In this document: positions 46,201 through 55,200 of the stretch, piece after piece
How the letters are laid out: every line of letters begins with the position of its first letter
How positions within the stretch are numbered: position 1 is the first letter of the stretch
Assembly (NCBI RefSeq): GCF_054482525.1
Contig: NZ_JBTHVG010000003.1
Length of the DNA: 64,000 nucleotides
From: a plasmid
Reading direction: 5' to 3' (one strand)
Position numbers: made by a program

Positions 46201-49200
46201 AGAGGATGTATTTACTATCTACGCTCGGATCCAGTAAATCTGAGAGAGAAGGGCGCTTGTCCGGATAAAAGTCTTTAATGTCTCTCAGAGTAAAACCGTC
46301 TTTCAGACGTAGGTCGCGGCGAAAACCAATAAGGACGATACGTTCACGGTGCTGGGGTCGGAAATGACGGCCATCGATGACTTTAGGATCATCCGCGCCC
46401 GTGCTTTCGCTGTTTGCGACGTCGTAGCCAAGCTCATCGAGCGTTTTCATGATGATGTTAAAGGTATTACCCTTATCGTGACTCTTCAGATTTTTTACGT
46501 TTTCCAGAACAAAAATTGCAGGTTGTTTTGCCCGGATGATCCTGGCCACATCAAAGAAGAGCGTACCCTGAGTGTCGCACTCGAAACCGTGTTTGCGACC
46601 CATAGAGTTCTTTTTACTGACACCGGCGATGCTGAATGGCTGGCATGGAAATCCCGCAAGAAGAACATCATGATCCGGGATAGAGGCATCGATAAATTTG
46701 TATGCCTCGTCATCAGTAACCTCGGGCCGGTTGCTAAGAGTGATGTCACGGATGTCTGAATTGAAGCGGTGCTCGTTCTCATCGCAATACCAGTTCGCCC
46801 GGTAAGTACGGCTGGAATAAGTATTCCATTCGCTCGTGAAAAGACATTTACCACCGATGGCATCAAATCCGCTTCGCAGTCCACCTATCCCTGCAAACAG
46901 ATCGATAAAGCTAAAGTGCCTGTCCTCATAATCAGCAGGTCGTGAAGGTATTAAAGTCTGTAGATAGCGTCCATCTGCGATACTCAGCTCACAATGCTCA
47001 GGTATGCATGTAACCTGACGTTTAAGGGATGCACGGGACCAATTACTGCCATTTTCATCATTTAATACCTGAGCCAGATATTTCAGGTCATAAATGGTCG
47101 AAGCTGTTAACAAAGTTTTGTGGATCAGAGATGGTGTTTTATCCACATCATTCAGGTCTGTCTCAAGATCATGAGTGTAACGTTTCATCCAAACTCTCTC
47201 AGGAATAATATCTTTGAGATAGATTAACACGCTTAATTTGGATTATTTTTTGGTTCAGGTTCTAAATTTATTGTGATTATTCTGCCTTTAAGTTGCAAAA
47301 AGATTGGTTTTAAGCCCGCCCATGAAATAATGACTTGTTAAAATACTGCCTGTAAATAGGCTTGTGGATACATGTCTGTACTCAACAAATCAAGGTGAAA
47401 TGATGTTTTTTTTAACAAAGTTACTTTTGCCCATCATGATTGTTGTATTCCCAGTGGCGTCCTGGGGGAACTCAACAACTTTTGAGGCAAAGGTGGTTAA
47501 GATTGTTGACGGTGACACCATAACTGCGTTGGATGCTCAAAACACAACCATCAAAATACGGATGTATGGTATAGACGCTCCTGAATCTAAACAGGCTTTT
47601 GGCCAAAAAGCAAAACAGGCCTTAACCACAGCTATAGCAACTAAAATCGTTACCGTGATAGACCATGGTACGGATATCTATGGCCGTATGTTAGGTACCA
47701 TCTGGTTAGATGGATATGATATCAATGCCTCTATGGTGGACAGTGGATATGCGTGGGTTTATCGGTTCGAAGATAACGCCATTGTCCCTGGCTATATCAA
47801 ATATGAATCCGCAGCACAAAAGGAGGCAAAAGGGTTATGGGCAGACACCAACCCTGTCCCACCATGGCAGTGGAGACAGGCAAACGAAAAGCCCAGAAAG
47901 GTGAAAGAGAAGAAATAACCATGATGAAAGAGCCTCATCCGTTACTTCAGTTGGTACTAAACGATTCCGGTCGTCTAACCATGCCTGTTTATTATAGAGA
48001 TCAACAGTATTGCCCGACTTGCCTTACAAAGGTGTTGAAGAGTGAGGATGGAAGTTTGGCGCACCTCGGGGAAATAAATCAAAATACATGTAGACCTTCT
48101 ATTTCAGTAGTTGTGACAAAAGCAATTATTGAAATGTTATGTGACGGGGAAAAAATATATGTAAATCCAATACGACACCGAGGCCGGGTGCTGGCACCCT
48201 CAGTAATTTTTTCTCCCGACACTCACACTTTCAAACCGTTTATAAATACAGACTATCAGCCTGTGGGAGCAAACTGGAAAAGTGAAAAGGGATATAAACT
48301 CGGTCTGTTTTATCTCAAAGATCGAGCCAACTCTATCAATAAAGAGGAATTTGATTTCATTGCCGTTATAGACCCTGAGGCAATGCAGAAAGAATTTATT
48401 TCGGCCTGGTCTGAGGTTGATGAAAAAAATCCATTGGAAACGCTGAAGCAGATCTTACGATCTAAAAACAACTCTTCTTTATGGGTAAAATGGCCTGGCA
48501 AAATTGAGCATGCGCAAAAAGGAAATTACAACGAAAATTACTGGTTCGATTATCAATCTGATAATCAGGAAGTGAACTGTACGGTCTCTGTTGTAGGTAT
48601 CGAAGGTAACAGTTCCGGTGAGACAATTTATAGATTGCAAACTTTGCTAAAGCGTAAGCTCAATGAATATCAACTGGTTCGGTCTTTAGGTACTATTATG
48701 CTTCTTGATAATACCGGGAATATGATTCCATCAAACCATCCTTATTTTGAAGTCATCTCAAAAGCATGTATAAATGGAGTGCGTGACTTTGTTCGTCAAA
48801 ACCCGTGGGTAGTCTGACGGTCAACTATAAAGCATAATATAATTAGTAATAACAAGGAACAGACATGAATGAAAACTCAGTAATCTTAATAAGTTTATTT
48901 TGGTTTTTTTTGGGATCGAGTGTTGTAGCTGGTTTTATGGATGCATCATTATATTGCTGGATTTTTGCAGCCATAAGCGCATTGTTTCTTCTTTCGGTGA
49001 TACAAACACCAAAGGAGTTAACGGTATCTATTAGTCATATGACAAGCAAAACGCTGATCTCAAAGACAGATGATGGATACACATTTAGCATTTCACCTTA
49101 CGGAGACGGGTACCGCTTATCAGTCTCGCCTGAAAATCGTCACAATGGTACCCAAAGCTTTGACGGCTGGTTCCCACGTTTTTTTTCCGAACCACAGTAT

Positions 49201-52200: not shown

Positions 52201-55200
52201 CATCTTCTCTTTCCAGTACCAATCTTGTAGATCCTGCAAGTCTAGCCCATTTTTCTCACGTATGCTTTCGTGTAATTCGCTAAGCGCGAGTTTATCATTA
52301 GGTTTATAAATGGCTAATTTTTCTTCAAATAAATCCAGCCAACGTTTCCCCATCTTACGACGCAAAACAAACACCATCGTGATAAATGTAATGAAATGCA
52401 CAGCAATTAGTTCCAACTTATGCGATTGCTGACCAGATAAAATTACTATTGTAACAACAGGGATGGCCGTATATAAAGCAATCAAAGCGACCATAAGTTG
52501 GTATGGTTTTTCCCGTATTACCATGTTCATGGGTAAACCAGAGGACGCTACTGCTTGCCAAAATCTTAAAGGGGAGCCCGCAGAATTCGGAAAAAATCGT
52601 ACGCTAAGGTTTTCCGGGCATCCGTAAGGGCCGAAACTTCCCGTCTTCCAGTCTGCGGCTCTGCCGCCAGACGTAATCGCCGGTTAGGTTGATGTGCTCC
52701 CAGCCCAGCGGCGACAGGAATTGCAGCAGCTCGCCGTCCACCGGCTTGCCGGCCTCGACCAACCCCTGGGTGGCGCGTTCCAGGTACACCGTGTTCCACA
52801 GCACGATAGCCGCCGTCACCAGGTTGAGGCCGCTGGCCCGGTAGCGCTGCTGCTCGAAGCTCCGATCCCTGATTTCCCCAAGGCGGTTGAAGAACACCGC
52901 CCTGGCCAGCGAGTTGCGCGCCTCACCTTTGTTCAGGCCGGCATGCACGCGGCGGCGCAGTTCAACACTTTGCAGCCAGTCCAGGATGAACAGCGTGCGC
53001 TCGATCCGGCCCAGCTCGCGCAGGGCCACGGCCAGTCCGTTCTGGCGCGGGTAGCTGCCGAGCTTGCGCAGCATCAGCGAGGCGGTGACGGTGCCCTGCT
53101 TGATCGAGCTGGCCAGGCGCAGGATGTCGTCCCAGTGGGCACGCACGTGCTTGATGTTCAGGGTGCCGCCGATCAGCGGGCGCAACGTCGGGTAGGCTTG
53201 CACGCCCTGCGGCACGTACAGCTTGGTTTCGCCGAGGTCGCGGATGCGCGGCGCGAAGCGGAAGCCTAGCAGGTGCATCAGGGCAAAGACGTGATCGGTG
53301 AAGCCGGCCGTGTCGGTGTAGTGCTCCTCGATCCGCAGGTCGGACTCGTGGTACAGCAGGCCGTCGAGCACATAGGTGGAATCGCGGACGCCGACATTCA
53401 CCACGCGGGTGCTGAACGGCGCGTACTGGTCGGAGATATGGGTATAGAACAGCCGTCCCGGCTCGCTACCGTACTTCGGGTTGACGTGCCCGGTGCTCTC
53501 GCCCCGGCCACCCGCGCGGAAGCGCTGGCCATCGGAGGATGAGGTCGTGCCGTCGCCCCAGTGGGCGGCAAAGGCGTGGCGATACTGGTGGTTGACCAGC
53601 TCGGCCAAGGCCGCCGAATAGGTTTCGTCGCGGATGTGCCAGGCTTGCAGCCAGGACAGCTTGGCGTAGGTCAGGCCGGGGCTCGACTCGGCCATCTTGG
53701 TCAGCCCGAGGTTGATCGCATCACCGAGGATTGCGGACAGCAGCAACGTCCTGTCTTTGGCCTCGGCCCCGTCCTTCAAGTGGGTGAAGTGGCGGCTGAA
53801 GCCCGTCCAGTCGTCCACGTCCATCAGCAGTTCGGTGATCTTGATGCGCGGCAGTAACTGGCTGGTTTGGTCGATCAGCGCCTGCGCCCGATCCGGCACC
53901 GCCGCATCCAGCGGGGTGATTTTCAGCCCTGACTCGGTGAGGATGGCATCGGGCAGCTCGTTGTCCTTGGCCAGGCGGGTGACGGTGGCCAACTGCTCGT
54001 CCAGCAGCTGCAAACGCTCTTCCAGGTACTGGTCGCTGTTCGGGTTGATCGCCAGGGGCAGGGCCTGCTCGCGCTTGAGTGCGGCGAACTTCTCGGCCGG
54101 CAGCAGGTAGTCGTCGAAGTGGCACTGTTGCAAATAGTCGGTGGTGATAAACTTATCATCCCCTTTTGCTGATGGAGCTGCACATGAACCCATTCAAAGG
54201 CCGGCATTTTCAGCGTGACATCATTCTGTGGGCCGTACGCTGGTACTGCAAATACGGCATCAGTTACCGTGAGCTGCAGGAGATGCTGGCTGAACGCGGA
54301 GTGAATGTCGATCACTCCACGATTTACCGCTGGGTTCAGCGTTATGCGCCTGAAATGGAAAAACGGCTGCGCTGGTACTGGCGTAACCCTTCCGATCTTT
54401 GCCCGTGGCACATGGATGAAACCTACGTGAAGGTCAATGGCCGCTGGGCGTATCTGTACCGGGCCGTCGACAGCCGGGGCCGCACTGTCGATTTTTATCT
54501 CTCCTCCCGTCGTAACAGCAAAGCTGCATACCGGTTTCTGGGTAAAATCCTCAACAACGTGAAGAAGTGGCAGATCCCGCGATTCATCAACACGGATAAA
54601 GCGCCCGCCTATGGTCGCGCGCTTGCTCTGCTCAAACGCGAAGGCCGGTGCCCGTCTGACGTTGAACACCGACAGATTAAGTACCGGAACAACGTGATTG
54701 AATGCGATCATGGCAAACTGAAACGGATAATCGGCGCCACGCTGGGATTTAAATCCATGAAGACGGCTTACGCCACCATCAAAGGTATTGAGGTGATGCG
54801 TGCACTACGCAAAGGCCAGGCCTCAGCATTTTATTATGGTGATCCCCTGGGCGAAATGCGCCTGGTAAGCAGAGTTTTTGAAATGTAAGGCCTTTGAATA
54901 AGACAAAAGGCTGCCTCATCGCTAACTTTGCAACAGTGCCCGCTGTACCAAATGCGGGACAACGTAAGCACTACATTTCGCTCATCGCCGGCCCAGTCGG
55001 GCTGCGAGTTCCATAGCTTCAAGGTTTCCCTCAGCGCCTCGAATAGATCCTGTTCAGGAACCGGGTCAAAGAATTCCTCCGCTGCCGGACCTACCAAGGC
55101 AACGCTATGTTCTCTTGCTTTTGTAAGCAGGATAGCTAGATCAATGTCGATCATGGCTGGCTCGAAGATACCCGCAAGAATGTCATTGCGCTGCCATTCT

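Follow-up and report, generated by a model that had tools for sequence, protein, structure and literature searches.

A 64,000-nucleotide stretch of a plasmid (NCBI RefSeq assembly GCF_054482525.1, contig NZ_JBTHVG010000003.1), referred to here as the window, contains an AT-rich block at 48865-52530 in which a preliminary description had listed eight short open reading frames (ORFs). All eight are present: ORF1 (48865-49272), ORF2 (49318-49572), ORF3 (49556-49897), ORF4 (49934-50164), ORF5 (50501-50962) and ORF6 (50992-51399) on the plus strand, and ORF7 (51450-51977) and ORF8 (52144-52530) on the minus strand. The best-conserved content of this block is soluble and not membrane-bound. It consists of ORF5 (153 amino acids), predicted to adopt a minimal GNAT-like (acyl-CoA N-acyltransferase) fold, ORF6 (135 amino acids), with a predicted transglutaminase-like, papain-fold core bearing Cys33, His73 and Asp88, and ORF7 (175 amino acids), which recurs beside small Cys-His-Asp proteins. 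In plasmids of four incompatibility groups, IncHI1, IncHI2, IncA and IncC, ORF5 and ORF7 repeatedly occur in the company of a small Cys-His-Asp protein.

The composition of the block sets it apart, with a GC content of 35-39% against about 50% elsewhere; the four 1-kb windows from 48001 to 52000 give 0.382, 0.352, 0.387 and 0.394, the rest of the window lies mostly between 0.45 and 0.56, and the adjacent transposon reaches 0.659. The long ORFs exceed what chance would supply: six have at least 100 codons, where 500 simulations of the region with a first-order Markov model give a mean of 0.34 and never more than two, and five have at least 125 codons against a mean of 0.07. A Kyte-Doolittle scan (19-residue window, mean of at least 1.6) finds hydrophobic segments in five of the eight (ORF1, ORF2, ORF3, ORF4 and ORF8), as the preliminary description had proposed for several of them, and none in ORF6 or ORF7; the single borderline segment of ORF5 is a buried beta-strand in its predicted model. 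The block also lies where it had been placed, between a nuclease locus on the left (a thermonuclease gene at 47403-47918; Pfam SNase, E=4.6e-24) and the resistance region, from which it is bounded by an inverted repeat at 52571. The further statement that none of the ORFs is recognisable from sequence holds for Pfam, NCBIfam, PADLOC and PHROGs, which give no match above noise for the eight ORFs or for the upstream 326-residue ORF (ORF7 has a noise-level PADLOC match to PDC-M24A, E=0.0094, 13.8 bits, and ORF3 and ORF4 match PHROG families of unknown function at E of 0.04 or worse), and ceases to hold for ORF5 and ORF6 once structures are predicted.

The segment 47300-52650 is about 100% identical to hundreds of conjugative plasmids of 200-350 kb from Escherichia, Salmonella, Klebsiella and Enterobacter, typed as IncHI2A, MOBH and MPF_F. 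At least 80% of this query is matched by 635 plasmid records; the block itself is found at about 100% identity in 618-635 plasmids and at 95-99% identity in a further 480 or so. The preliminary description had left its proposal to be judged by transcription and by conservation in related plasmids, and the conservation seen indicates that the genes are real. In pSTM6-275 the gene order runs from the sil/pco island through DUF4942 and DUF1173 genes, an orphan DNA cytosine methyltransferase (Dcm), the thermonuclease and a hypothetical gene of 298 codons to the block, followed by a Tn1721/TnAs1-type transposon and a class 1 integron/IS26 resistance region. The block thus belongs to the IncHI2 backbone and lies in its variable, accessory portion.

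ORF6 (50992-51399) has few close homologs. Searched with a profile, a set of 1.84 billion representatives nevertheless yields 267 sequences at E<=1e-3, most of which are stand-alone and 130-170 amino acids long, and homologs occur in 2,091 plasmids, mostly conjugative. Across an alignment of 101 family members, C33, H73 and W75 never vary, and the conservation of D88 is 90% or higher. The AlphaFold2 model (predicted local distance difference test, pLDDT, 96.4) places Cys33 at the opening of helix 33-46, His73 in strand 69-80 and Asp88 at the end of the adjacent strand 83-88, and its core is the alpha/beta fold common to transglutaminases, LapG-type proteinases and arylamine N-acetyltransferases (NATs). 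The top Foldseek matches are weak and of transglutaminase-like kinds. Pfam and NCBIfam contain no match to ORF6, and a single one of the 101 family members touches Transglut_core, with a match (E=0.0018) too weak for the cut-off; sequence searches of the PDB, with the single sequence and with a profile, returned nothing meaningful. Judged by this model, ORF6 is an unannotated family inside the known transglutaminase-like superfamily and a predicted thiol enzyme. It can be likened to the LapG-type transglutaminase-like cysteine proteinases, to Streptococcus pyogenes TglA, to the deamidases SseI and PMT-C3, to arylamine N-acetyltransferases and to protein-glutaminases; unlike these enzymes, it is close to a bare catalytic core of 135 residues, without signal peptide or extra domains, and forms a family of its own of about 270 clusters, chiefly on conjugative megaplasmids. 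The chemistries of these relatives include proteolysis, deamidation, acyl transfer and cross-linking, and the fold does not tell which would apply to ORF6.

ORF5 (50501-50962) belongs to a smaller family of 38 clusters, confined to Enterobacterales. Its model (pLDDT 90.2) consists of one long helix and three strands, then strand 70-78, a loop, helix 85-100, strand 103-109, helix 112-120 and strand 133-137. The conserved motif V-x-V-V-x-T-I-S-V-K-x-P-G-x-G-x-F brings a G-x-G loop to the site that binds the CoA pyrophosphate in GNAT enzymes (beta4-alpha3): residues 79-84, K-E-P-G-T-G, lie between strand 70-78 and helix 85-100, with G84 invariant and G82 mostly conserved. The first position of this loop is Lys, in contrast to the Gln or Arg of GNAT Motif A (Q/R-x-x-G-x-G/A). 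Curated GNAT models in Pfam and NCBIfam give no match to ORF5 at E<=0.1, the PHROG matches are weak and to families of unknown function, and PDB sequence searches (single sequence and profile) found nothing meaningful. On this structural evidence ORF5 has a minimal GNAT-like fold and is a candidate acyltransferase, comparable to the GNAT acetyltransferases and especially to the minimal ones of mobile elements, such as the anti-CRISPR protein AcrVA5, and to the GNAT toxins AtaT and TacT.

ORF7 (51450-51977, minus strand) matches nothing in Pfam or the PDB. Homologs are found by tblastn in 2,327 plasmids, 1,218 of them at less than 60% identity. Between IncHI2 lineages the proportions of non-synonymous and synonymous changes (pN/pS), which rest on 2-20 differences per gene and hence indicate a tendency only, are 0/0.018 for ORF7 (no non-synonymous versus two synonymous changes), 0.012/0.054 for ORF5, about 0.03/0.10 for ORF6, 0.016/0.053 for ORF8, 0.024/0.079 for ORF2 (against p33836-1, with just nine differences), 0.011/0.014 for ORF3 and 0.072/0.098 for ORF4 (about 0.7, that is, weak constraint). 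As regards coding status, the conservation of protein sequence and of predicted catalytic residues at 30-55% identity is the stronger evidence and weighs more than these values.

The small Cys-His-Asp protein of the association is either ORF6 or a member of a second small family, TGL-2, which carries the motifs E-C-D-G-H, P-H-x-W and I-D-Y-R-L-R-M-W with the spacing of Cys, His and Asp seen in ORF6; searches of the PDB with TGL-2 sequences were likewise without meaningful result. In the IncHI2 plasmid pKAM644_2 the order is TGL-2, ORF5 and ORF6, followed on the minus strand by ORF7, ORF8 and genes for proteins of 171 and 1111 amino acids. IncHI1 plasmids have an ORF5-like gene, an ORF6-like gene and, further on, the 1111-codon gene on the minus strand, and in an IncHI1B plasmid TGL-2 adjoins ORF7. 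An Enterobacter plasmid carries a homolog of the soluble part of ORF1 (o1C, see below) and, beyond intervening genes, an ORF5-like gene, TGL-2, an IS3 element, an ORF7-like gene (minus strand) and an ORF6-like gene. On a metagenome contig from ENA (L026), SNase and a gene of about 315 codons are followed, after other genes, by a DUF6884-like gene, an ORF5-like gene, a membrane ORF of 76 codons, TGL-2 and a gene for 1121 amino acids on the minus strand. IncA and IncC plasmids encode a 202-residue protein with a TGL-2 domain and, 5 bp downstream, a homolog of ORF7 (39% identical), a few kb from mobI/repA. A strict operon partnership of ORF5 and ORF6 was considered and rejected, as the partners vary between plasmids. 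Outside the IncH and IncA/C plasmids no conserved partner of ORF6 was found, and the ORF5 and ORF7 models matched no neighbouring gene at 13 other loci.

Several further observations concern the neighbourhoods of these genes. In the IncC plasmid pC12 (L029, 5073-6731) and in IncA (L030, 4373-6022) the genes a few kb from mobI/repA form a tight run of three, all annotated as hypothetical, which encode the TGL-2-domain protein (202 amino acids), the ORF7 homolog (173 amino acids) and a protein of about 170 amino acids (173 in IncC) with an N-terminal hydrophobic segment. The 220-residue DUF6884-like protein whose gene directly precedes the ORF5-like gene on L026 is 36% identical to a protein encoded in the window at 33277-33897 (minus strand), and in a viral contig the gene for a DUF6884 protein overlaps the start of an ORF6-like gene. 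DUF6283 proteins are encoded within about 1.5 kb of ORF6-family genes on a metagenome contig (L009, 5912-6289) and on the Pseudomonas aeruginosa megaplasmid pPUV-4 (L034, 4695-5135); on the latter, the ORF6-like gene comes after a gene for the YejK nucleoid-associated protein. Orphan methylase genes and genes for nucleoid-associated proteins adjoin ORF6-like genes on other megaplasmids.

A domain resembling ORF6 also occurs within a larger phage protein. On a 191-kb viral contig (IMG/VR 3300025534_000213; L018, 3894-7949), residues 369-462 of a 1351-residue protein form an ORF6-like domain in which the Cys and the motifs G-H-Y-W and D-I-T-A-D-Q-F-G are intact, and residues 512-649 match the ADP-ribosyltransferase domain ART-PolyVal of Pfam (E=3.4e-32). 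Polyvalent proteins are arrays of effectors that are delivered with invading DNA or expressed right after its entry (PMC5512222; PMC6222260). Solo versions of their domains are known from plasmids, and GNATs and other protein-modifying domains occur in them either fused or solo; four peptidase superfamilies have been listed for this class, none of them transglutaminase-like (Iyer et al. 2017, PMC5512222). Unlike polyvalent proteins, ORF5 and ORF6 are stand-alone genes, with the one fused ORF6-like example described here. A second resemblance is to the anti-defence islands in the leading regions of conjugative plasmids (Samuel et al. 2024, PMC11541004), with which the block shares the organisation of small unannotated genes beside an orphan methyltransferase gene; in IncA and IncC, the closeness of the ORF7 and TGL-2 homologs to mobI/repA (a few kb) fits the same comparison. 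Unlike those islands, the IncHI2 block lies away from oriT and the transfer genes and includes no known anti-defence gene, and that study mentions neither these families nor IncH plasmids (PMC11541004).

Upstream of ORF5, within a 306-bp non-coding spacer (50167-50472), stands a palindrome resembling a LexA (SOS) box, TACTGTATGTATGTACAGCA, at 50277-50296, about 205 bp before the start of ORF5. Of its 20 positions, 17 agree with the Escherichia coli LexA consensus, TACTGTATATATATACAGTA, and the CTGT-N8-ACAG core is present; no site with three or fewer mismatches to that consensus appeared in any of 100 shuffles of the window. The site is present in about 660 IncHI2 plasmids. As a candidate LexA box it may subject either ORF5 and ORF6 or an antisense transcript running leftward to control by the SOS response. 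A scan of the region for promoters and terminators gave counts equal to those in shuffled sequence and is uninformative. Just one other CTGT-N8-ACAG match exists in the window, at 56551-56566 within the resistance region (CTGTACAAAAAAACAG); two such matches per 64 kb are within chance (15 of 100 shuffles). On a viral contig (L014, 2126-2145) a LexA box matching at 19 of 20 positions, TACTGTATATATATACAGTT, is found 2.8 kb upstream of an ORF6-like gene, at the head of a run of ORFs mostly on the plus strand.

The reading that we tentatively favour, with a confidence somewhat short of even, is that the block carries a module for plasmid-host conflict or for establishment which acts through modification of host proteins. 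Two layers can be distinguished, one of small membrane ORFs (the N-terminus of ORF1, ORF2, ORF3, ORF4 and ORF8), two of which are here by-products of rearrangement, and one formed by the conserved soluble trio of GNAT-like ORF5, transglutaminase-like ORF6 and their presumed partner ORF7. In this scheme the action of ORF5 on a target would be acylation and that of ORF6 a thiol-based cleavage, deamidation or acyl transfer; the plasmid would direct both at host proteins and so ease its establishment or blunt host defences, the two enzymes being akin to free-standing versions of polyvalent-protein domains. In this lineage, the LexA box would couple expression to the SOS signal provoked by incoming single-stranded DNA.

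Several points weigh against a module of this kind. A comparison of ORF6 with TGL-2 by hhalign gives a probability of 6.5%, though Cys, His and Asp fall in register, and the two families are therefore treated as analogous, with no claim of homology. Nissabacter has an ORF5-like gene alone, most members of the ORF6 family have neither ORF5 nor ORF7 as a neighbour, and the ORF5 homolog of R27-type IncHI1 plasmids has a replaced N-terminal half and has lost the P-loop segment. ORF7 is disrupted by insertion sequences (IS) in whole plasmid lineages, so that the module must be dispensable for plasmid maintenance. The link to polyvalent proteins comes from one contig, the ORF6 family is found in no cultured phage genome, and NCBIfam, PADLOC and PHROGs show no match to a known anti-defence, defence or establishment family. 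Because the block of IncHI2 plasmids is flanked by the sil/pco island and the resistance region and not by oriT or transfer genes, the leading-region argument does not apply here. The LexA box is specific to the spacer of this lineage, none being found upstream of the module in the other lineages examined, and the hexamers that overlap it (on the minus strand by scan, on the plus strand by eye) are weak, with no convincing promoter adjoining. As to expression, the pSTM6-275 paper contains no expression data, and the text of the pMDRHI2 and pJXP9 papers gives no per-gene values for the block. A literature search by RefSeq protein accessions and by IncC vcrx gene names returned no matches.

A comparison with further lineages of IncHI2 (pA2483mcr-9, p33836-1, an Enterobacter bugandensis plasmid and pKAM644_2) shows that the region is an accessory part of the IncHI backbone, mosaic and in part eroded, and not one membrane-protein unit. 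ORF1 (135 amino acids) is an in-frame fusion: its codons 1-56 (48865-49032) are the N-terminus of a 104-residue membrane ORF with two hydrophobic segments, and the remainder is a soluble ORF of 77 residues, o1C, with its own ATG at 49039. Alignment with the R478-like IncHI2 lineage reveals a deletion of 530 bp at 49032|49033 which removed the 3' half of the 104-residue ORF and the whole of an 85-residue membrane ORF; other lineages retain the order 104-residue membrane ORF, 85-residue membrane ORF and 77-residue soluble ORF. o1C is a real gene, with a 64%-identical stand-alone homolog (73 amino acids) beside the ORF5-like gene of the unrelated Enterobacter plasmid described above, and in p33836-1 ORF1 is broken by a frameshift in a T-run. 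The spacer is lineage-specific, is present in 661 plasmids and has no similarity to the pKAM644_2 locus (L007) between the homologous segments; it stands in place of about 3 kb of pKAM644_2 genes downstream of ORF4, which comprise ORFs of 91 and 101 amino acids, a trypsin-like serine protease and a TGL-2 Cys-His-Asp protein of 165 amino acids.

At the right end, ORF8 is the remnant (52144-52570, minus strand) of a 163-residue protein with two membrane helices, whose gene is intact at 6672-7163 (minus strand) of the pKAM644_2 locus; the listed ORF8 (52144-52530, 128 amino acids) begins at an internal ATG produced by an ATA-to-ATG change. As homology ends at 52570, the first 65 nucleotides of the gene, its native start and its promoter are gone, and neither the lost part nor the neighbouring 171- and 1111-codon genes occur elsewhere within the window. 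The boundary is a 38-bp terminal inverted repeat, GGGGAGCCCGCAGAATTCGGAAAAAATCGTACGCTAAG, at 52571-52608, the end of a Tn3-family transposon, which we take to be of Tn1721 type; next to it come a Tn3-family transposase gene, itself truncated (52604-54193, minus strand) and labelled 'TnAs1 family' by the Prokaryotic Genome Annotation Pipeline (PGAP), and then IS26. ORF1, as a deletion fusion, and ORF8, as a transposon-cut remnant, are therefore not to be read as native genes. Further insertions are seen in natural plasmids, namely IS903B or IS5 in ORF7, ISVsa5 at the end of ORF4 (p1782_2_EMB) and ISKox3 in the spacer (pKO_1).

Deletion, replacement, truncation and IS insertion together imply that the region tolerates damage, and it is from this record that the most serious rival draws, namely that the block is functionless, decaying cargo, a silenced AT-rich filler hitch-hiking on the IncHI backbone whose genes are real by descent only. 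The 530-bp and ~3-kb losses, the transposon truncation and several independent IS insertions have all been borne, ORF3 and ORF4 are weakly constrained between lineages, and ORF1 has been frameshifted in one plasmid. The AT-rich DNA is moreover of the kind silenced by H-NS, a protein that IncHI2 plasmids themselves encode and strongly express (PMC13183382); the block may be silenced. Such cargo would not readily account for ORF5-ORF7, which, at identities as low as 30-50%, are intact and retain their predicted catalytic residues in plasmids of the IncHI1, IncHI2, IncA and IncC groups and in others, nor for the pN/pS ratios of ORF5 and ORF6 of about 0.2-0.3 (from small counts) and the fact that none of the IS insertions seen has struck either gene. 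We regard this explanation as unlikely, while giving it real weight.

A toxin-antitoxin, addiction or anti-phage module appears more doubtful. Here the GNAT-like protein, in the manner of AtaT or TacT, or the thiol enzyme would be toxic, and ORF7 or ORF6 would neutralise it. The TGL-2 and ORF7 homologs of IncA and IncC, 5 bp apart, recall effector-immunity pairs; many toxin-antitoxin systems surround one member of the ORF6 family; and SOS-controlled toxins are known. For a GNAT toxin of the AtaT/TacT/KacT type one would look for an adjoining antitoxin gene of the RHH (ribbon-helix-helix)/DUF1778 type, and none is found beside ORF5, whose flanks are the non-coding spacer and ORF6; PADLOC gives no match above noise. 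ORF6 and ORF7 are convergent in this plasmid and not co-transcribed, and partners change from plasmid to plasmid. IS elements have inactivated ORF7 in many plasmids in which ORF5 and ORF6 are intact; if ORF7 acted as the antitoxin, its loss there would be lethal.

The small membrane ORFs are of uneven conservation. ORF2 (84 amino acids, two hydrophobic segments) is found by tblastn in 1,098 plasmids, almost always with an identity of at least 95%, with full-length copies only in IncHI2-type plasmids, and is annotated by PGAP in some records. ORF3 encodes a two-helix hairpin membrane protein; its start is probably not the listed TTG at 49556 but the ATG at 49610 (95 amino acids), as indicated by alignment with a homolog and by the AAAGGG ribosome-binding site ahead of it. 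With a 99-residue protein of the IncHI1A plasmid pRHB11-C04_2 it shares 35% identity (E=1e-16), and the gene for that protein is syntenic, downstream of Dcm, the thermonuclease and a gene of about 300 codons. ORF3 is a real conserved gene that PGAP usually misses, being unannotated in most IncHI2 records; in p33836-1 a 12-nucleotide indel leaves its frame intact. ORF4 (76 amino acids; 65 from 49967 according to PGAP) is a single-helix membrane protein with one strong hydrophobic segment, found in IncHI2 plasmids only and 84% identical in the R478-like lineage. The preliminary description had noted that such blocks on plasmids sometimes encode entry-exclusion proteins, holin-like toxins or abortive-infection effectors, a reading that we consider highly improbable here: five ORFs do have one or two predicted helices and ORF3 is syntenic in IncHI1 and IncHI2, but no ORF matches a PHROG lysis-category (holin) family or a PADLOC model, ORF1 and ORF8 are products of rearrangement, ORF2 and ORF4 are restricted to IncHI2, and ORF4 shows weak constraint as well as an IS disruption in a natural plasmid. 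For IncHI plasmids, entry exclusion has been assigned to genes of the transfer regions and is not known to map here.

IncHI2 plasmids are major carriers of mcr-1, of genes for extended-spectrum beta-lactamases (ESBLs) and of metal-resistance genes, and most of their backbone is annotated as hypothetical. To this the present analysis adds predicted folds and catalytic residues for two backbone genes found in about 1,000-2,000 sequenced plasmids, and the observation that genes of the ORF5 and ORF6 types are accompanied by a third gene in plasmids of four incompatibility groups. None of this is new in kind, since the folds are known ones and over 1,000 sequenced plasmids already contained the genes, without annotation. 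A bolder and rather speculative extension, to which we give little credence, would see in ORF5-ORF7 and TGL-2 an unrecognised two-enzyme module for counter-defence or host manipulation, carried by IncHI1, IncHI2, IncA, IncC and other megaplasmids, placed under an SOS switch in the mcr-1-associated IncHI2 lineage, and the source of a thiol domain recruited into phage polyvalent proteins. Action on host defence or physiology, if true, would provide handles to understand and perhaps to limit the establishment of plasmids in new hosts, and recruitment into polyvalent proteins, if true, would add a fifth peptidase-like superfamily to that class.

The left flank of the block has its own record of insertion. 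The 298-codon hypothetical gene downstream of the thermonuclease (47921-48817; listed with an ORF start at 47837) has received an mcr-1-pap2 segment in many Salmonella IncHI2 plasmids, and other records contain IS3-family and IS1 elements in or beside the locus formed by these two genes. Homologs of about 300 residues are encoded at the equivalent position in IncHI1 plasmids and on a metagenome contig.

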